Shown here piece after piece: positions 19,732-64,000 of a stretch of DNA of 64,000 nt. Source of the DNA: Eledone cirrhosa. Its lineage: Eukaryota. The first letter of the stretch is position 1, and the number at the start of each line of letters is the position of its first letter. A program made the position numbers and the translations under genes. The notes under the pieces were generated by a model that worked only from the letters and a program-made list of their open reading frames with translations, searched no databases and had not been told where the DNA came from. The stretch lies in NCBI GenBank assembly GCA_964016885.1, contig OZ024755.1, forward strand, positions 20,212,001-20,276,000, given 5' to 3'.

Positions 19732-19763
19732 GTCTCTGTGGCTCAATCGGTTAGCGCGTTCGA

Positions 19764-19798
<35 letters not shown>

Positions 19799-19805
19799 AG
19801 GGACG
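19732..19805 (+). tRNA. trnN-GTT: tRNA-Asn (GTT), possibly a pseudogene or retrocopy
   Basis: GTCTCTGTGGCTCAATCGGTTAGCGCGTTCGACTGTTAACCGAAAGGTTGGTGGTTCAAGCCCACCCAGGGACG folds as a cloverleaf nearly identical to the canonical metazoan tRNA-Asn. It has one D-stem mismatch (T:C) and one anticodon-stem mismatch (A:C), and a short T-run downstream. Confidence 0.9.
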
Positions 19806-22484: not shown

Positions 22485-22682
22485 GTTTGGCAGAGGGTCG
22501 GACGCCATGCTTTGCAGCATAGAGTTACAGCCCATTATGATCTGAGTTCAAATCCGCCGAGGTTAACTCTGCCTTTCATCTTTACGGGGTCGATAAAATA
22601 AAGTACCAGTCACGCACTGGGGTCGATTTAATCGATTTTCCCCTCCCCCCAAAACTGCTGGCCTTGTGCCTATATAAGAAAA
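22485..22682 (+). mobile_element. SINE A (long tail variant)
   Basis: Core plus a CACGCACTGGGGTCGATTTAATCGA...CCCTCCCCC tail. Confidence 0.88.
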
Positions 22683-22720
22683 ACCATTATTATTATTATT
22701 AGTAGTAGTAGTAGTAGTAA

Positions 22721-22851
22721 TAGTACAGACTAAAAGGGTAAGCATTGAATTTCTGCTTTCACCCGAAGCGGGATCATCTGAAACAGTTTCAAGTGATCCG
22801 GCGCTTCGGGTGAAAGCAGACATTTATTGCTTAAACTTTTAATCTGTACTA
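22721..22851. repeat. imperfect inverted repeat (fold-back)
   Basis: Arms at 22721-22776 and 22794-22851 (TCTGCTTTCACCCGAAGCG / CGCTTCGGGTGAAAGCAGA) with a 17-nt loop. Confidence 0.85.
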
Positions 22852-22881
22852 CAACTACTACTACTTCTACCACCACTATTA

Positions 22882-23053
22882 ACAATTGTTTCTACTTTAG
22901 GCACAAGGCCAGCAATTACCCAGTGCATTACTGGTACTTTATTTTATCGACCCCGTAAGGATGAAAGGCAAAGTCAACCTCGGCGGGATTTGAACTCAGA
23001 TCGTAAAGGGACGTAACTATGCTGAAAAGCATGGCGTCCGACCCTCAACCAAT
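22882..23053 (-). mobile_element. SINE A
   Basis: Near full-length match. Confidence 0.9.
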
Positions 23054-23131: not shown

Positions 23132-24265
23132 ATCCAATGCTTGAGGTTCTTCATATATCGCTTGACTTGCTAGAATATGAGCCAAACAACCCATATATCA
23201 CATATTCCTGTCTTGAAGAAGCAGATAGTGAATAATGTAATTTAGAACTATTGTCTTAAAAAAACAAGACGTGTTGCCATGGATTGAACGCCTAGCACAA
23301 ACAGTAGTTTTCATAAGCGACCATCTACCACTAAACTGGAACAGCAAGTACAGCAAACATAATATTTTATGCGTTTCAGTTTCCGAATTATCGAAAAGAC
23401 AATATCGTTTGCAACTCTTAGATATGTTTATCATATATAAATATTCCATTCATAGAATTAGGTTAACTCAACTAAAATGTAATTATATAGTTGCTGTTCG
23501 AAAATGTTTATGTTTCAACAACAAATAATCTAGTTCAAACTTCATTTAAACACTAAGACAATTTCTGTTTCAGTTTTACTATAACTGAATTATTTCTACA
23601 TTGCCGTCTAATGTTTCTGAATATATGCAATACACTTTAAGATTATTTGAATATTTTTAAAGATTCAGAATTTTAATTATTTTCCTGCGGTGTTTTAGAG
23701 AAGAGAAGGTAAACTATAAACGTATCATGTGCTTATAGAAAACTAGTTTCACTGCTACACTTTCGTTAAATCGTGATGTAGGTACGTGTGTTTCATGAAA
23801 GCTTTCACGTAGAGTTAAATTAAATATAACATTAGAATATTATTTTGTACTTGAATATAAGTCAGATTGAATTCGTACAATTTCTACTAAACTCAAATTT
23901 AATTTACAATGAAAGAAAGGGTGGAATAGTACTTATCATTATAGAGAAGGAAACATATCAAGTTCTGAGAGCTGCCTAAAAATAATTTAGAAAAAAAATG
24001 AGAAAAAATATTTTCCGTGAAATATTTAGGTTTCAAAGTAATTTTGAGATAATTTAAACCAATAATTTGAGGAAATGGTACAGTAAAATTGTGGCTTCAG
24101 AATATATTTGTATGTAACAAAGAACATTTAGACAAACAATCAGAGATAATTCAATATTTCGAAAATAATAAAAATAATAATGGCTTCTTGAAATTAAATA
24201 TAATTAATACATTGCAAAGTAACGCACAATCACAGACAGACACACGCTTAAACACATGTATATAC

Positions 24266-24310
<45 letters not shown>

Positions 24311-24472
24311 GTGAGGGTTTTTTACAAAATGAAAAATAACCGGTGTCCTACACGAGTGAAAGTATAAAGAAAAAAAGATGAAATCGAAAATGTAACTGGA
24401 GTCTATACATATATTTTATGCGTCTCAGTTTCCGAATTATCGAAAAGACAATACCGTTCGCAACTCTTAGAT

Positions 24473-26891
<2,419 letters not shown>

Positions 26892-29372: not shown

Positions 29373-29380
<8 letters not shown>

Positions 29381-29596
29381 TTAGAAATTATAAGCTTTCA
29401 CCGTATTTTAGACTAAAGAAATTTCTAGCCTGATAGTGGGGTTTATAACCATCGGAGAAATGGAAAAAGATGAGTGTTGCCGTACATGGCAACACTCATC
29501 TTTTTCCATTTCTCCGATGGTTATAAACCCCACTATCAGGCTAGAAATTTCTTTAGTCTAAAATACGGTGAAAGCTTATAATTTCTAATTTCTAAT
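29373..29596. repeat. perfect 109-bp-arm palindrome (fold-back element) abutting (TA)n
   Basis: 29373-29481 is the exact reverse complement of 29488-29596. The loop is GTACAT. Confidence 0.95.
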
Positions 29597-35229: not shown

Positions 35230-35418
35230 TTGCAGCATATGTACAAACTTTATTTGCATATTACAATTATTGCTATATCGATCAGCTCAAGGTGATGGGG
35301 CATGACATTTTTTCGACATCTCGTCAGATATGCGGCACATCTAAACTTGATTGTACCCTGAGTTGATCGATATCGAAACAATTGCAATATGCAAATAAAG
35401 TTTGTATATATGCTGCAA
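35230..35418. repeat. fold-back element (about 63-bp arms) carrying a hammerhead motif
   Basis: 35230-35293 and 35355-35418 are imperfect reverse complements. Confidence 0.88.
35256..35333 (-). ncRNA. type I hammerhead ribozyme, mutated core
   Basis: Minus strand: GCATAT-CTGACGA-GATGTCGA..loop..TCGATATA-GCAA-TAATTG-TA-ATATGC. Stem I is perfect, and the opposite arm keeps the ancestral TCGATATCGAAACAATTG. Confidence 0.65.
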
Positions 35419-37246: not shown

Positions 37247-37990
37247 TCGTTAAAAACACAAAGCTTTTCACAAGGTAGCCTGAAAGAATTTCAATAATTC
37301 TGAAGAATCAGAGAGAGACAGTTTTCCCTAATAAACATGCAACAAATAATTGTAGAAAGATGTTAGTTGCAGTGCTTACTGTATAACATTTCTCACTTTC
37401 CAACATATTTATCGTACATGCATTCAGTTAATCGTTAAAACTGAGGCCAAACTTGTCGACTTCCTTGTGATTAGGCCTGTAAACTGATCACTGATCTTGA
37501 TCAGACGAATGACAACAAATTCTAACGACTGGTGCTTATTTTAAGGAACCCAACGAAAATATCCAAATACGACGAAGCATTGTCTTGGCGCTCTAACTAT
37601 TCGGCCAATCAACAATTATACAGCATTTGTAAAAATATTAAAATATCACGAAAAAGAACTCATTTCGTTTCATTTTTCTGCTTTATTTATTGACTTGATT
37701 GTCTTTTAATTAATTAAATTGCTACCATATTTTCCACCACATACGCCATTATCTTATGCCTGCGAGGTTGTATTCATTAACTAACACAATACACTCAGAA
37801 TATATTAAAAATACATTAGATATAATTTCAATTTATGAGTACACACTAAATAAGATATGCAGAGATTGAATGATATATAAGGAGTAGTAGAATGATTGCA
37901 AAAACAAATGTGAATCCTTGATCATTATCCGGAGGTCACATAATAAAACAGTTTTACGTCATATTTTATACAATATTAATTATCTCTATT

Positions 37991-38106
37991 TTGAGTTCAA
38001 ATCCCGCCGAGGTTAACTTTGCCTTTCATCCTTACGGGGTCGATAAAATAAAGTACCAGTAATGTACTGGGTAATTAGCTGGCCTTGTGCCAATAGTAGA
38101 AACAAT
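37991..38106 (+). mobile_element. 5'-truncated SINE A with TSD
   Basis: TTATCTCTATTTTGA is duplicated on both sides. Confidence 0.9.
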
Positions 38107-38173
38107 TATTTATCTCTATTTTGAAATTGGTTTTCTCTTTAAGAAATATGTATTCTATTCAGAAATACTTAAA

Positions 38174-38372
38174 ATAATTGTTTCTACTTTTGGCACAAGG
38201 CCAGCAATTATCCCAGTGCATTACTGGTACTTTATTTTATCGATGAAAGGCAAAGTAGGGATGAAAGGCAAAGTTAACCTCGGCGGGAGTTGAACGCAGA
38301 ACACAAAGGGCCATACATCCATGCTGCAAAGCATGTTGGCTGACGCTCTACCGACACTGCCAATCCACCGCC
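38174..38372 (-). mobile_element. SINE A with TSD
   Basis: ATACTTAAAATAAT at 38165-38178 and 38373-38386, plus an internal duplication of GATGAAAGGCAAAGT. Confidence 0.88.
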
Positions 38373-41416: not shown

Positions 41417-41671
41417 CAACGGTCAATTTTTTAAAGGGGTACGTCAATGTCTATTTATAAAACTGTTATATATTATATTTTGTCTGATGAAGGCATACCA
41501 CAATGTAACTTGGTATCCTTGAAATATATATAATGAAATAAATATGGTTTTATAAATATAGTTTCCATTTATTAATATCGTATATCTACTCCAAATATTT
41601 GTCGAGTGCTTTATATCAGTTATAAAAATATTTGCTTGTTGTATCCCAACAATTTAAATAAAACTTTTGCA
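41417..41671 (+). mobile_element. non-coding pLTR-like element with a hammerhead (single-arm copy of the 53281-53755 element)
   Basis: Aligns by eye to 53585-53755 (+) and to the reverse complement of 53281-53540. It ends in (TA)n. Confidence 0.82.
41476..41540 (+). ncRNA. type I hammerhead ribozyme (minimal, palindromic stem III)
   Basis: TATTTTGT-CTGATGA-AGGCATACCA(loop)TGGTATCCTT-GAAA-TATATA-TA-ATGAAATA. Confidence 0.75.
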
Positions 41672-41694
41672 TATATATATATATTTATATATAT

Positions 41695-42171
41695 ATTTAT
41701 TACATATCTTACAATGCTTCATATTAACTGTACTAACTAATATCGATAAAAATGGCGTCGACATTGCAATACAACGGGAGGAAACATGAATTTCTACGCC
41801 ATTTTTATTGATATTAGTTAATATAGTTAATATGAAGCATTGTAAGATATGTAATAAATGATTAATAGGTATTTCAGAAATGTATAAAGGACAAAGGATT
41901 AACAAAAAAACAAAACAAAGTAATGATATACTCACCCAGTATAACATATTTCAGGGTTATGATCCGCTTTTCAAATGCAAAACAAAACCGAAGCATTTGA
42001 AAACGAGGTACTAACTCTGAAATATGTTGAACTATACTGGGTAAACAAAAAACTTTGTTTTCTTTATTTGTCTTACATTATCCTATATATATTTCTACCA
42101 CATTGTACTGGCTTTCTGAAGTCCACATCAATGAATTATTATACATCTCACAATGCTTCATATTGATTATA
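41695..42171. repeat. double (zig-zag) fold-back element between (TA)n tracts
   Basis: Arms at 41695-41765/41789-41859, and more diverged arms at 41822-41978/41993-42171. Confidence 0.8.
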
Positions 42172-43279: not shown

Positions 43280-43702
43280 ATATATATATACGTCCTTATA
43301 CATACGAGAGATTAAGGTGCCAGAAATGAGTGAGGTCAAGACACGACATTTGCTTGAAGCTAATCTCTTTACATTTCCCAAAGAATATAATTTCATAGAA
43401 ATCGTTTATAATTGATTTGAAGAACCATGTTGTTCCGTAGAGATTTCATTTATTGATTTCTGGTGCAACTATGTTTAGAAGATATAGACCACATCTGGAA
43501 AGAGTTTAATTCTGTCCTTATCGAATCAGTTATTATTATCTAAATTTATCTTGCTGTTCTTTTATGTCCGGTGAGTGTACAAACATATATTTCTGAATAT
43601 TAATACGTTATATATTATACCAAACAGTAAGACACACATTATATATATATGAACAATATGAAAACATGGCGTGCTGCGTGGTTGCAAATGGGTTACATAT
43701 GA

Positions 43703-43925
43703 ATAAATTTAGTCCTTCATCAGTGATCTTCCAGCCTTCATCGCTTTAAAGACCATATACCTCTGGTTGGTGCGAGCAACGGCTAAAGAAAGTCGTTGGG
43801 TCTCGCTCGTTCCCCCTATTTACGTGTCCCAACGACTTTCTTTAGCCGTTGCTCGCACCAACCAGAGGTATATGGTCTTTAAAGCGATGAAGGCTGGAAG
43901 ATCACTGATGAAGGACTAAATTTAT
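43703..43925. repeat. perfect 98-bp-arm palindrome abutting (TA)n
   Basis: 43703-43800 is the exact reverse complement of 43828-43925, with a 27-nt loop. A related single-arm copy lies at 11969-12040. Confidence 0.95.
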
Positions 43926-44226
43926 ATATATATATATATATATATATATCAGTAAAACAGATATATATGTCAATGAAACCATATTTGATCGGACTACAAT
44001 TAAAGAAAGAAATATTTTCCCGATTTTCTAAGTTATTATTTACAAGCAACGACTGTTGTTAATTTTTTTCCTACATCTGGGATTCCGAAATGTTCAAATA
44101 CATACACACATTATATATTATATATGTATCTAGCTGTCGAAACGGCCGGAGCTCAGCCGTCGGAGTCCTGACGTTTATCCTATATATATATATAGTTTCA
44201 TCTGGGTTTCCCAACTGTTCAAATAC

Positions 44227-52671: not shown

Positions 52672-53257
52672 ACTTTTTAAAACATGTAATAACCTCAAAC
52701 GCAGAAAAGACCGAAACAACAGTTGATATCTATAAATAATAGCTAAGAAAATCGGGTAAAATACACTTATAGACGGAAAAAGTGGCCCAGCAGCCGTTAC
52801 AAAGATTCGAACTCTGTATTCCTCGAATTCCGATCGAGTACTCAAATCATTGAGCTAAGCGGCCACTGACAACAGACTCCGTCTGAATTAGAAGCTATAC
52901 GAAGACAGCTTCGATAGTTTCTATAGAAGGTTGTTTATATCCATAGACGAAAATAATTGATTATTTATAGCAGTCGATTGTTGATTCAACCTTTTATACG
53001 TTTGTGATTCGTATTTCTTCTAAAAACAATTCCATATTATCCAGGGTTTCGATAGTTTATATAGAGGTTTGTCACATCGAAGCTGTTAATACAGCTTCTA
53101 ATTGTGAGAGAATCTGTTGTTAGAGGTCGCTTAGGTCAATGGCTAGAGCAGTCGGCCGTAATTCGAGGAATATTAAATTCGATTCTTCTTATCGTCTGCT
53201 GTCTAATCCTACTGCAATATTTTCTGCGTTTGGGATTCCTACATTTTCTAAAAAGTG
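52672..53257. mobile_element. diverged fold-back element with a tRNA-like cassette in each arm
   Basis: Arms at about 52672-52915 and 53076-53257 are reverse complementary. The A-box-like TAGCTCAATG and B-box-like GTTCGAATC point outward. Confidence 0.65.
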
Positions 53258-53410
53258 TGTGTATATATATATATATATATGTAAAAGTTCTATTTAAATT
53301 GTTGGGATACAACAAGCAAATATTTTTATAACTGATATAAAGCACTCAACAAATATTTGGAGTAAAAATACGATATTAACAAATGGAAACTATATTTATA
53401 AAACCATATT

Positions 53411-53475
53411 TATTTCATTATACATATTTCAAGGACACCAAGTTAAATTATGGTGTGCTTTCATCAGATAAAATA
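53411..53475 (-). ncRNA. type I hammerhead ribozyme (mirror copy)
   Basis: Reverse complement of 53648-53712. Confidence 0.75.
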
Positions 53476-53647
53476 TAATATAGATCAGTTTTATAAATAA
53501 ATATTGACATACCCTTAAAGAATGCAACCATTACTGTTGGAAGCTCCCGGAATTAAGCTACAACTCCACTATCCGAGAGCTTCCAACAGTAATGGTTGCA
53601 TTCGTTAAGGGTATGTCAATATTTATTTATAAAACTTATCTATATTA

Positions 53648-53712
53648 TATTTTATCTGATGAAAGCACACCATAATTTAACTTGGTGTCCTTGAAATATG
53701 TATAATGAAATA
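53648..53712 (+). ncRNA. type I hammerhead ribozyme
   Basis: TATTTTAT-CTGATGA-AAGCACACCA(loop)TGGTGTCCTT-GAAA-TATGTA-TA-ATGAAATA. Confidence 0.75.
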
Positions 53713-53751
53713 AATATGGTTTTATAAATATAGTTTCCATTTGTTAATATC

Positions 53752-53801
<50 letters not shown>

Positions 53802-56372: not shown

Positions 56373-56375
<3 letters not shown>

Positions 56376-56606
56376 AAGTAGTAACATGTACTTACGCCGT
56401 ATTTGACTAAATAAAATAAGTCTGTTAGTTGGGATTTTAAAATAAACCTCTGAATGGAAAAAAAGGATGAGTATTGACGTACATGGGACAGGAAACTCGC
56501 ATCCTTGGTTTGCCTTTTTTCCATTCAGGGTTTGTTTTTTTAAATCACAACTAACAGACTAATTTTATTTAGTGAAATACGGCGTAAGCACAGGTTACTA
56601 CCTAAT
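56373..56606. repeat. imperfect 94-bp-arm fold-back element abutting (TA)n, related to 29373-29596
   Basis: Arms at 56373-56466 and 56513-56606. It shares ATGGAAAAA..GATGAGT.TTG.CGTACATGG and downstream TTCAAA.TCGC...GTTTC.AAACA with the 29.4-kb element. Confidence 0.88.
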
Positions 56607-59356: not shown

Positions 59357-59550
59357 CAGTCATATGCACAATGCTTCTCCTTTTACACATGACTAGTCAT
59401 TGTTTTTAAGCCAAGATAATCGGATTAATTTCTATATTCTGAGAATGTTGCAGTCGTTTTAGAAGATATACTGATAAGTTCGAATCATTCTATAACACAC
59501 AAATTTATGCGCATGCTTATATGTAGCGTATGTATAGAAATAAATAAATG

Positions 59551-60491
59551 ATATATATATATATACACACAAATATATATATATACACAAATATATATAT
59601 ATACATATACAAATATATATATACACATATACAAATATATATATACAAATATATATATACAAATATATATATATATATACAAATATATATATATATATAC
59701 AAATATATATATATATATACAAATATATATATATATATACAAATATATATATATATATACAAATATATATATATATATACAAATATATATATATATATAC
59801 AAATATATATATATATATACAAATATATATATATATATACAAATATATATATATATATACAAATATATATATATATATACAAATATATATATATATATAC
59901 AAATATATATATATATATACAAATATATATATATATATACAAATATATATATATATATACAAATATATATATATATACAAATATATATATATATATACAA
60001 ATATATATATATATATACAAATATATATATATACAAATATATATATATATATACAAATATATATATATATATACAAATATATATATATATATACAAATAT
60101 ATATATATATATACAAATATATATATATATATACAAATATATATATATATATACAAATATATATATATATACAAATATATATATATATATACAAATATAT
60201 ATATATATATACAAATATATATATATATACAAATATATATATATATACAAATATATATATATATATACAAATATATATATATATATACAAATATATATAT
60301 ATATATACAAATATATATATATAAATATATATATATATACAAATATATATATACAAATATATATATATATACAATTTCATATAATATATATATATACAAA
60401 TATATATATATATCCTATTTCATATAATATATATATATACAAATATATATATATATCCAATTTCATATAATATATAGATATACAAATATAT
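59551..60491. repeat. minisatellite of about 20-bp units, CAAA(TA)n
   Basis: Regular CAAA-punctuated TA runs. Confidence 0.95.
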
Positions 60492-60637
60492 TTTGAGTAT
60501 ATGTTGGTTGTATACCAACACGTCAGTATGCAGGCTGGAGCACTCAACGAAGTGCGCAGGTTGGTTTGGTTACTCCGGAGTAATGTAAAATAAAGTTAAA
60601 TAAAAAGTCAAATGTTTAAAATTTAGCTTCGTTTATT

Positions 60638-60692
60638 ACTGCTATATATATTTCAGTGACAGCCATCTTTGGCTGTGACCTCTTCAGGCAGT
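60638..60692 (-). ncRNA. type I hammerhead ribozyme in the PLE 3' region
   Basis: ACTGC-CTGAAGA-GGTCACAGCCA(AAGA)TGGCTGTCACT-GAAA-TATATA-TA-GCAGT, immediately followed by AATAAA. Confidence 0.85.
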
Positions 60693-60855
60693 CCGAATTA
60701 GTGTGGTATAGACAAGTACATATGTTGTTGAGGTGTATAATTTTGTCAATACTCTGATATGCCCAGTTCCTGGTTGGGTTGTTATTTCACTGAGGAACTG
60801 GAATCATATGAATTAAAACAAACGAATTTCAGTGTCAAAGGGCCTCTTCTCCTCT

Positions 60856-60997
60856 CATTGGTCAGATGTTAGAACATTCCTCATTCTAAGTGTTGTTATT
60901 GTTGGAGTTAGCTTAACAAATTGATAAAGTGGTAGAAGGAACAAGGTGGTAAAGGAACAAAATAACAAAAAACGTGTCAAACTTCCCATTGGTCAGA
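60856..60997 (-). promoter_or_regulatory. two CCAAT boxes in the PLE 3' region (putative pLTR promoter)
   Basis: TCTGACCAATG on the minus strand at 60856-60866 and 60987-60997, upstream of the hammerhead. Confidence 0.4.
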
Positions 60998-61835
60998 AGT
61001 CTATAGAATAATTCTTTCTGGGGTGAGGCTCCGTGTAGTGTTTGTGTTTGCTATTGTTAAGTACATTTGACCTCTACCATTATTTCGGTATTGTTGTTGG
61101 TGTTGTGGTAAGCTTATGAATTGCTGCTGCTGACAATTTAGAAGTATCTGTGTGTGTTTTTTCTTCATCCCTCCTGCCACCATCTCTCATAGTGGGGGGG
61201 GGGATTCTTCCATGTATATGAAGAAATATAAGGCAATAAATTAAGAAAACAGAAAATAAATAATAAATAGAGAATAAAGAATAAAGAATAAATGAAAAAT
61301 TGGTGAAAAAGTAATGAAAATGAATATGGAGAAGTGAAACATAAAATGAAGATTCAAATAAAGTAGGATAAAGTGTGTGTGTGCTATAACCAATCTCAAG
61401 GTCAGAAATATGTTGGATAGATTGGTATGAGGGACAAGATGTTAAAATAAGATAATCACACAAAATGTGTTTGTTATAATCAATCTCAACTTAAAAATAA
61501 ATATAAGGTGATACAGTGAAGAGAGAAGAAAACAAATAAATTAATAAAGAGAAATCAAGATTTAAAATTGGAACTTGAAAATCAGAAATCAAGTAAATTA
61601 AAATGTGTTTGTGTTATATAGATGTTGGCCAAATTATAATGGCTGTGTCCGATTCAATCTCCAGGCTATCATGGTGTCTGCTCGGCCTGGGTTGTTCCTT
61701 ATGGCTTGAGGGGAGTTCACAACCTAGGGTGTTTTGTTACTGCCCATATAGCTTGAGGGAGGTCTGGCCGAGAGGTGTTTACATGTTCTGTAGAAGTCCC
61801 TATAGCTTGAGGGGAGTTCTCATCTTTTTGTGTTG

Positions 61836-62971
61836 CTACTGTCCATATATCTTGAGGAAGGCTCTAAGGTGTCTGCATGTCCCGAAGAAGTCGGTTCTGA
61901 GGTTTATCAGGCCGCTTCCACCTCTTAGTATCTCGAGGGTCTCGTTCAGGCATAGTTTGCATATACAAGATCCCCCTTTATCGGGTGGTACTTTCCTGAT
62001 TATGTACCAGGCCAGAGAGTACGGGATCCTGTCCAGCTTAAGCTTCCAGATCAGGTCGGAGAGAGCCGTGCTTTTCCTTATGGCCTCCTTATTGAATAAA
62101 TGGCGATGGTTGTACCAGCGGTCTTTAAAGCTTGTTGATGTGGCTCCTATGTAGGGGTGTTCGGAGTTGGGGGTTTTAACCCTACTACCCTATACTAGGT
62201 TCTTCTTGAGGCATTCATTAACAAGGGGGCATGATTCGGGGTTTCTGCAGTTGCAGAGGGTGGTCGACCTCTGCGTGCCTATATTAGGGTTCCCGTTATG
62301 TGTTACATGTTGGTCTTCCCCCAGGCCCGGTGGGGAATCCCCGGGTCTGTTTGGGTTTCTTGTGTGGGCTCTGGGTACCCCTCCCCTCCTTTCACATGGT
62401 TCTGCTGAGTGCTTGTATTGCCATCTTCTGGTTGTGTGTGGTTTTTAAGCCTACTCCTGTTGATGGTAGATATGTGTTGGGCCAGGTTTCTCGTGGTGGA
62501 ATACGAGAGCTTCACAGTGTGTCTGTTGAAGATCCTGTGGTATCTATGGTCCCTCGGGAAGCATTTATCAAGTGCTCCAAAGAATAATCGGGCCAAGCTG
62601 TTCTTTAGGGCCGCTGAGTAGGGTGGATTGTACCACGTGATTTTTCGGTGTCTCCTCCTATATGTGTGGGTCGGGCGCGTCGTGATTTGTTGGAGGTTTG
62701 TTGGGTTGCTAGTGATTCCCGCACTGTTGCTTCCCCTTTGGGCGCTATGCTTTTTGTTATCTTCACGGCCCGAATCTGTGGGGTGGTCGTTGCCCGCGCT
62801 GGGAGATCTATCGTGGGGTGGTCCCCCGTTTCCCCCCTCCCTACGTGTCGTGCGGTTGGGGTCGTCGGTCTTGGGGTGGTTAGCGTCACCCCTGAGACTG
62901 CTACTCATATTGTGTTTCATCTCGTGGTTAAGCGTACTAGTCACCACCGCCCGTGAGGTGGTATCGGGCAC
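61836..62971 (-). pseudogene. PLE linker plus GIY-YIG endonuclease, disrupted
   Basis: RRRHRKITWYNPPYS...LDKCFPRDHRYHRIFNRHTVKLSYS, then a frameshift, then CNCRNPESCPLVNECLKKNLV*GSRVKTPNSEHPYIGATSTSFKDRWYNH...STALSDLIWKLK...CKLCLNE...INLRTDFFGTCRH. There is an in-frame TAG at 62190-62192 and the stop at 61836-61838. Confidence 0.9.
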
Positions 62972-63051
62972 ATGGTGCCTATTTGTTTCTGCTCTGCCTG
63001 TATTGCATTTTTGTTTTTAAAATGCAAAGTCAATAAATACACCAGGATTTT

Positions 63052-63112
63052 TTTCATTCTGATGATTGAAAGCAAAATTTTTTTGCTTTTAAGAAACCAA
63101 TGGTAAATGAAA
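63052..63112 (+). ncRNA. type I hammerhead ribozyme, intact
   Basis: TTTCATT-CTGATGA-TTGAAAGCAAAA(TTT)TTTTGCTTTTAA-GAAA-CCAATGG-TA-AATGAAA: a 7-bp stem I, a 12-bp stem II and a GUA cleavage triplet. Confidence 0.85.
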
Positions 63113-63141
63113 TAATTGCCTTATGTTGTTTATTACATAAC

Positions 63142-64000
<859 letters not shown>

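Follow-up and report, generated by a model that had tools for sequence, protein, structure and literature searches.

A head-to-head fusion of a Penelope-like element with the end of a second hammerhead repeat family in Eledone cirrhosa

Two repeats between TA arrays

The window, the whole 64,000-nucleotide stretch of Eledone cirrhosa DNA analysed here, carries two joined repeats framed by TA arrays. The left array (59540-60490) is a (TA)n tract with CAA interruptions and forms the left-hand target, and the right array (63143-64000), interrupted by GAC, G and GACAC, forms the right-hand one. Between them lie element A, a Penelope-like element (PLE) on the minus strand (60490-63005), and repeat B, a short hammerhead-bearing repeat on the plus strand (63002-63142). 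The two are fused 5'-to-5', that is, head-to-head, with both 3' ends facing TA arrays and no TA at the join, and each lacks its 5' part at this one junction. Because A matches up to 63005 and B matches from 63002, they share a 4-nt overlap, ATTG (63002-63005), which is at once the antisense end of A and the start of B; 4 or more shared letters would arise by chance with a probability of about 0.02. A target-site duplication around the composite is unreadable, since both flanks are TA arrays. The CAA unit of the left array is similar to the final bases in the tail of A, which would fit growth of this array from the end of the element.

Element A is a 5'-truncated, broken copy whose reverse transcriptase (RT) core is missing, as judged from tblastn, Hydra-clade motifs and read depth. 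Its coding remnant (61842-62689, minus strand), damaged by one in-frame stop and one frameshift, comprises the post-thumb conserved block, a CxCX5C linker and a GIY-YIG-type endonuclease with CxxC and CxH. Full-length RT-endonuclease (RT-EN) proteins place their C-terminal third on exactly this interval in tblastn (E 1e-12 to 1e-35), and homologues of the remnant number 2,336 cluster representatives at E<=0.001. RWK and DKT motifs occur in these homologues, while the RT itself is absent from the window copy. Pfam returned nothing relevant for A or for four RT-EN homologues. The Hydra clade is defined by a CxCX5C linker, the lack of CCHH, and CxxC plus CxH, and nearly all of its members insert into (TA)n (PMC8557442). 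The endonuclease of A has no cysteine pair inside its GIY-YIG-type motif and no CCHH, and carries CxxC and CxH around a conserved E and N; together with the GIY-YIG-type domain of RT-EN proteins, the CxCX5C linker, the 3' hammerhead and the (TA)n insertion, these sequence features assign A to the Hydra clade. A resembles Hydra-1_Obim and Penelope-13_HM, as presented in PMC8557442, in the linker, the missing CCHH, CxxC/CxH, the 3' hammerhead and (TA)n, although its aligned blocks differ by eye from those of Hydra-1_Obim and about 105 residues before the post-thumb block are unmatched. This stretch (62690-63004, minus strand) consists of about 105 open codons of low-complexity, GC-rich sequence where the homologues have a short linker. 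It is also present in copies from two of the sequencing runs described below (X1 and X4) and recalls the linker inserts of rotifer Penelopes; for its first approximately 60 residues, no close protein relative was found.

Five hammerheads from three families lie within the 64 kb: 41476-41540 (+), 53475-53411 (-), 53648-53712 (+), 60692-60638 (-) and 63052-63112 (+). A relaxed scan returns the same five. The minimal hammerhead of A (60638-60692, minus strand) has its H17 at 60643 and is followed by a tail of about 150 nt. The third family, C, forms a head-to-head pair (53283-53755) whose two arms belong to the same family, with a 94% match over 335 nt, and overlap by 3-4 nt where they meet; past their cut sites, the arms have tails of 136 and 51 nt. 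A third copy of C (41426-41668) is solo and directly follows a SINE-like fragment. Inverted arms of one and the same family are thus found in the C pair and not at the A-B junction.

The hammerhead of repeat B

The ribozyme of B is a type I hammerhead with an intact core, located at 63052-63112 on the plus strand by a descriptor scan of both strands, opposite to the PLE reading frame of A. Its CUGANGA, GAAA and NUH elements are closed by three helices. Helix I (63052-63058 with 63106-63112) has 7 bp and leads into CUGAUGA (63059-63065); helix II (63066-63077 with 63081-63092) has 12 bp, including one G-U; and GAAA (63093-63096) is followed by a near-palindromic helix III of 9 nt (63096-63104) and the cleavage triplet GUA. 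H17 falls at 63105, so that the layout of helices and core predicts a cut after this position, as the initial annotation had proposed. Against 100 block-wise dinucleotide shuffles of the window, run with loose, medium and strict descriptor settings, the five matches in the real window compare with a mean of 0.2 (maximum 2); at the stricter settings, medium and strict, five matches and one match compare with none in any of the 100 shuffles.

The same annotation had described an intact, different hammerhead on the opposite strand, and the descriptor, the shuffles and the alignment given below agree with this. Its word "textbook" does not fit: the helix III of the monomer is weak, pair 10.1-11.1 is U-A in place of the canonical G10.1-C11.1, and none of the Rfam hammerhead models matches B, whether at the gathering score or with E<=10. 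In the Rfam scan, the four remaining hammerheads of the window are likewise missed.

Folding of the 140-nt B unit gives z = -2.9. Closure of helix III is worth -1.2 kcal/mol within a monomer versus -8.2 kcal/mol between two copies, and the homodimer cofolded in the double-hammerhead form reaches -32.6 versus 2 x -11.8 kcal/mol. In these models, B is a minimal, dimer-type hammerhead whose short palindromic helix III favours the dimer. According to PMC4209133, minimal hammerheads of this type show no activity on their own and weak activity in dimeric form. In B's own RNA, the hammerhead would thus be expected to cut after 63105 mainly as a homodimer. For element A, it is proposed to have no function, because it lies on the opposite strand and its helix III is unable to pair with that of A. 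An A-B heterodimer ribozyme was considered and rejected on the same two grounds, the A-B helix III duplex having a predicted energy of +1.4 kcal/mol.

B shares with the minimal hammerheads of metazoan PLEs (PMC4209133) the type I topology, the intact core, the tiny palindromic helix III and the long helix II. It differs from them in a helix II of 12 bp instead of 7-8, in the lack of a bulged nucleotide at that helix's 5' end, and in the lack of G10.1-C11.1. In File S2 of PMC8557442, helix III of most Hydra hammerheads is a palindrome of 4 bp whose loop is 1 nt long, and pairs other than G-C at 10.1-11.1 are common among them, as in B. The nine letters of B's helix III are identical, letter for letter, to those of the Hydra-1_oBim hammerhead in that file, whereas helices I and II and the flanks differ by eye. 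This identity is the best evidence for B as a Hydra-type end.

Repeat B as a separate, abundant family

Read depth and a flank of its own identify B as the 5'-truncated 3' end of a separate, abundant hammerhead-bearing family. Its tail (63113-63142) ends 37 nt past the cut site and runs into the TA array. No second copy of B was found within the 64-kb window. The local alignment of B with the hammerhead end of A (60638) scores 20, a value equalled by 130 of 200 shuffles, and B has no similarity to family C beyond that of shuffles. By alignment, B is therefore unrelated to A's hammerhead end, with no detectable kinship, and the earlier statement that it is not a simple inverted copy of the element's own end holds.

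Four of 11 listed public runs of reads or contigs were compared with 60470-63150 at 82% likeness. X1 and X4 are contigs from one organism, their kind unrecorded; X5 consists of contigs from a second organism; and X9 consists of raw RAD reads that carry the same label as X1; the window itself may derive from X1. At 63048, the depth reaches 109,406, 546, 44 and 885 in X1, X4, X5 and X9, respectively, and 2,716, 54.7, 1.3 and 0 in the bin 62900-62989 on the A side. B is thus 10-40 times deeper than the adjacent body of A, and the step is seen in all four runs, with the reservation that summed contig depth is not copy number and that RAD data sample loci unevenly. In the raw X9 reads, the depth rises from 0 over 62900-62989 to 830 over 62990-63079. 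The depth step of the four runs indicates that B is usually unattached to A. From the other side, X4 contigs 15 and 16, which carry the whole depth of 62720-62989 (41.3 + 13.4 = 54.7), match the window up to 63005 and then continue with 269 and 410 other letters, respectively. Since both leave at 63005, A is not usually attached to B either, as far as two contigs can tell.

One record in X4 and one in X5 begin to match at 63002, and their 12 upstream letters are the same. This flank, common to two organisms and visible over 27 nt, shows that B has its own upstream sequence and that an A/T-rich hairpin with 9-bp arms (63003-63027) belongs to B. The initial annotation had noted this hairpin as the marker of the junction; the hairpin is present, but the X4 and X5 records of B span it, which removes that role. 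An origin of the hairpin as a fold-back made at the junction is rejected for the same reason, as it lies inside B's matched stretch. In X4 and X5, the sequence upstream of B closes, just before 63002, with a run rich in pyrimidines followed by AG, which looks like a splice acceptor and may be due to chance. Drosophila Penelope has an intron whose end lies at the hammerhead (PMC4209133). Splicing of an antisense A transcript onto B was rejected because the GT of the donor, which splicing would remove, is still present in the window.

B occurs in subfamilies: some part from the window's sequence upstream of 63049 (538 X9 reads), others differ in helix II, and loose ends lie at 63049 and 63093. 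Behind B, the loose ends run into TA. In a loose-end consensus from X1, G-C replaces the G-U pair of the window's helix II and the loop base of helix III is a different one, and read variants include 1-nt deletions in the U-run of loop II. These variants fit the predicted fold. The read depth of A, in turn, falls from its 3' end to its 5' end. The last 340 nt of A (60490-60830) show an approximately ten-fold drop at about 60815-60830, many reads match only the hammerhead core (60620-60699), and this 3' part behaves as a separate high-copy unit with many subfamilies.

Judging by its ribozyme architecture and TA targeting, B probably represents the 3' end either of another Hydra-clade PLE family or of some non-autonomous derivative. 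Whatever the history of the join, B may instead be a non-autonomous hammerhead repeat, either a non-LTR retrozyme monomer or a SINE-like derivative, moved by PLE proteins; this identity is a tentative one. It would account for the very high depth of so short a unit, for subfamilies with a common 3' half but a different helix II or upstream part, and for the result that no ORF was found for B. Patterns of B gave 0 matches in metagenome and viral contigs. Retrozymes have been reported as PLE derivatives that are often monomeric (10.64898/2026.07.22.740005), and B shares with the non-LTR retrozymes its kinship to PLE ends and its make-up as a short and abundant unit with a type I hammerhead. However, non-LTR retrozymes are defined as tandem repeats, whereas B is single at this site; none of the 15 joints listed (of 32) goes back within B; and A's own 3' end is equally deep, so that depth alone also fits 5' truncation. 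Motifs of A, B and C gave 0 matches in the supplement of PMC8557442, and those of B gave 0 in the supplement of PMC13282606, which are weak results because long runs are cut and lines wrapped in these files.

Histories of the A-B junction

The junction joins the ends of two families and is unlikely to be a single element with several ribozymes. The favoured account, at a probability of about 0.5, is that it is a one-off composite scar of two (TA)n-targeting retroelement families, produced by successive insertions into one TA tract and joined by microhomology. One element would already have resided in the tract when the other was target-primed there in the opposite orientation; its unfinished cDNA end would then have annealed at ATTG inside the resident copy, with loss of the intervening DNA. 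A later microhomology-mediated deletion between two neighbours would leave the same scar. With five hammerhead ends of three families and 72 TA arrays in 64 kb, a shared tract needs no special link between A and B. The independence of B is supported by the flank common to two organisms, by X9 depth that does not reach into A, and by the departure of both X4 contigs at 63005. Each ingredient has been described in Penelope elements: a 5' junction formed by microhomology-mediated annealing without a target-site duplication, many copies with deletions mediated by microhomology, and the insertion of one family into another in the opposite orientation (all PMC3846280). PLEs also tend to insert into or beside existing PLE copies (PMC6765202). 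Against the sequential account, B occupies precisely the position at which an inverted 5' copy is usual in PLEs, and no TA remains at the junction, as in the C pair. A second A-B joint in one X1 contig and a possible inverted end of A itself at 63005 in X4 contig 16 also speak against it. An allele with an empty site was not observed. That A is simply nested within B is unsupported, as B's upstream motif was not found to the left of A; the one match to this motif in the window, with 3 mismatches, lies 36 kb away at 24316 in another short repeat and was judged to be chance.

A single event on two templates is the possible but less likely alternative. Here, a dimeric PLE protein would nick both strands of the TA tract and copy an A RNA from one nick and a B RNA from the other, and the two cDNA ends would anneal at ATTG; a variant has synthesis switch template to B. 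The head-to-head geometry, the absence of TA at the join and the 4-nt overlap (P about 0.02) resemble the same-family C pair, and A itself forms own-family inverted joints: among the 15 joints listed of 32, six are opposite-strand joints within A, and X4 record 11 holds a clear inverted end of A with a 2-nt overlap. The further A-B joint is also head-to-head, running from 60694 to 63101 in a single X1 contig with a depth of 12.4, but its B side spans just 26 letters, under the 30-letter level at which the tool advises caution. X4 record 16 contains an opposite-strand joint 60822/63005 with a 38-letter side, which may be A's own inverted end attached at 63005, or else a contig ending on an inverted end about 370 letters further on. 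If it does join at 63005, this would be a recurrent join point, favouring the one-event model. An anole PLE protein is reported to nick and extend both strands, to start without homology to the cut DNA and to be a predicted dimer (PMC11167929). On the other hand, microhomology is equally expected from sequential insertion or deletion, target-site duplications are unreadable in TA arrays, pLTRs are given as family-specific in PMC3846280, and the same source reports no cross-mobilisation, a statement made there for EN+ versus EN- types. The earlier suggestion of template switching between families may hold: the geometry of the usual inverted PLE 5' copy, the overlap and the one weak second joint agree with it, and they are indistinguishable from the outcome of sequential insertion with microhomology or of later deletion.

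Two further readings carry little weight. It is improbable that B is a constant component of family A or one of its subfamilies, which would make an element with two different ribozymes on opposite strands. The direct adjacency of A and B invites this reading, and a small subfamily could exist, given that 24 of 9,472 X1 pieces and 15 of 32 joints are listed, but the 10-40-fold depth step at the junction, B's own flank in two organisms, the X9 depth of 0 on the A side and the exit of both X4 body contigs at 63005 contradict it. For these reasons, the multi-ribozyme element envisaged in the initial annotation is unlikely. Still less probable is an assembly or library chimera, with a junction absent from the animal. 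None of the 24 records listed of 9,472 bridges 63005 in the form seen in the window, although so small a listed fraction tempers this point, long TA arrays are resolved on both sides, and the junction has the anatomy of natural PLE inversions such as the C pair.

Comparison with known systems and side observations

PLEs commonly carry an inverted, 5'-truncated copy at their 5' position (PMC8557442). The inverted 5' pseudo-LTR of EN+ PLEs (PMC3846280, PMC8557442) is like the A-B junction in being head-to-head and 5'-truncated, with a short overlap and 3' ends pointing outward; the cases described in these sources are of one family, whereas A-B is cross-family. Penelope-13_HM, for example, carries a 5'-truncated inverted copy, while at A-B the inverted piece comes from another family. 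Dual hammerhead motifs 100-700 bp apart on opposite strands have already been described (PMC4209133), and the A and B hammerheads differ from such pairs in being 2.4 kb apart and unrelated. In L1 twin priming and synchronous insertions (10.1101/2024.08.27.596794), both nicks prime, microcomplementarity joins the cDNA ends, and bridges can hold two distinct elements. L1 belongs to another retroelement class, however, and classical twin priming involves one RNA with internal priming, whereas both arms at A-B are 3' ends.

Much of this setting is known. In 2014, genomes were reported to hold minimal hammerheads of several consensus families each, for the most part single motifs stemming from truncated PLEs, as in this window, along with some opposite-strand pairs (PMC4209133), and Hydra elements with such hammerhead ends, including an octopus family, in 2021 (PMC8557442). 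New here are an undescribed hammerhead repeat family and one fused scar in a well-described class, which is ordinary as it stands. A literature search, with subscription papers mostly outside its reach, found no paper on an inverted arm from another PLE family. The junction would matter if cross-family inverted arms were single events. It bears on the origin of the inverted 5' copy of PLEs, which may come from self-priming or fold-back on one template or from a second RNA being primed. Since fold-back cannot yield a foreign arm, counting cross-family junctions across the genome would discriminate directly between the two models; it would also show trans-use of RNAs between PLE families. As a tentative generalisation, the inverted 5' arm of PLEs could be a second RNA, possibly from another family, that a dimeric RT-EN protein primes on its own at the other nick. 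Cross-family head-to-head composites would then recur in the genome, and 63005 may be a recurrent join point for own-family or foreign ends.

Several other repeats of the window were recorded in passing. Self-inverted repeats lie at 22487-23052, 37989-38301, 43694-43934, 29373-29596, 56373-56606, 35230-35418 and 41695-41859, and some self-inverted insertions are inverted pairs of the window's abundant SINE-like repeat of about 200 bp. A tRNA-like Rfam match of 55.5 bits (19732-19805, plus strand) lies between SINE-like copies, and another of 31.9 bits (52792-52863, minus strand) has a diverged partner at 53076-53201. A short repeat between TA arrays (24305-24475), without a hammerhead by the scans used, has a partial second copy at 23357-23444 with 91% likeness.
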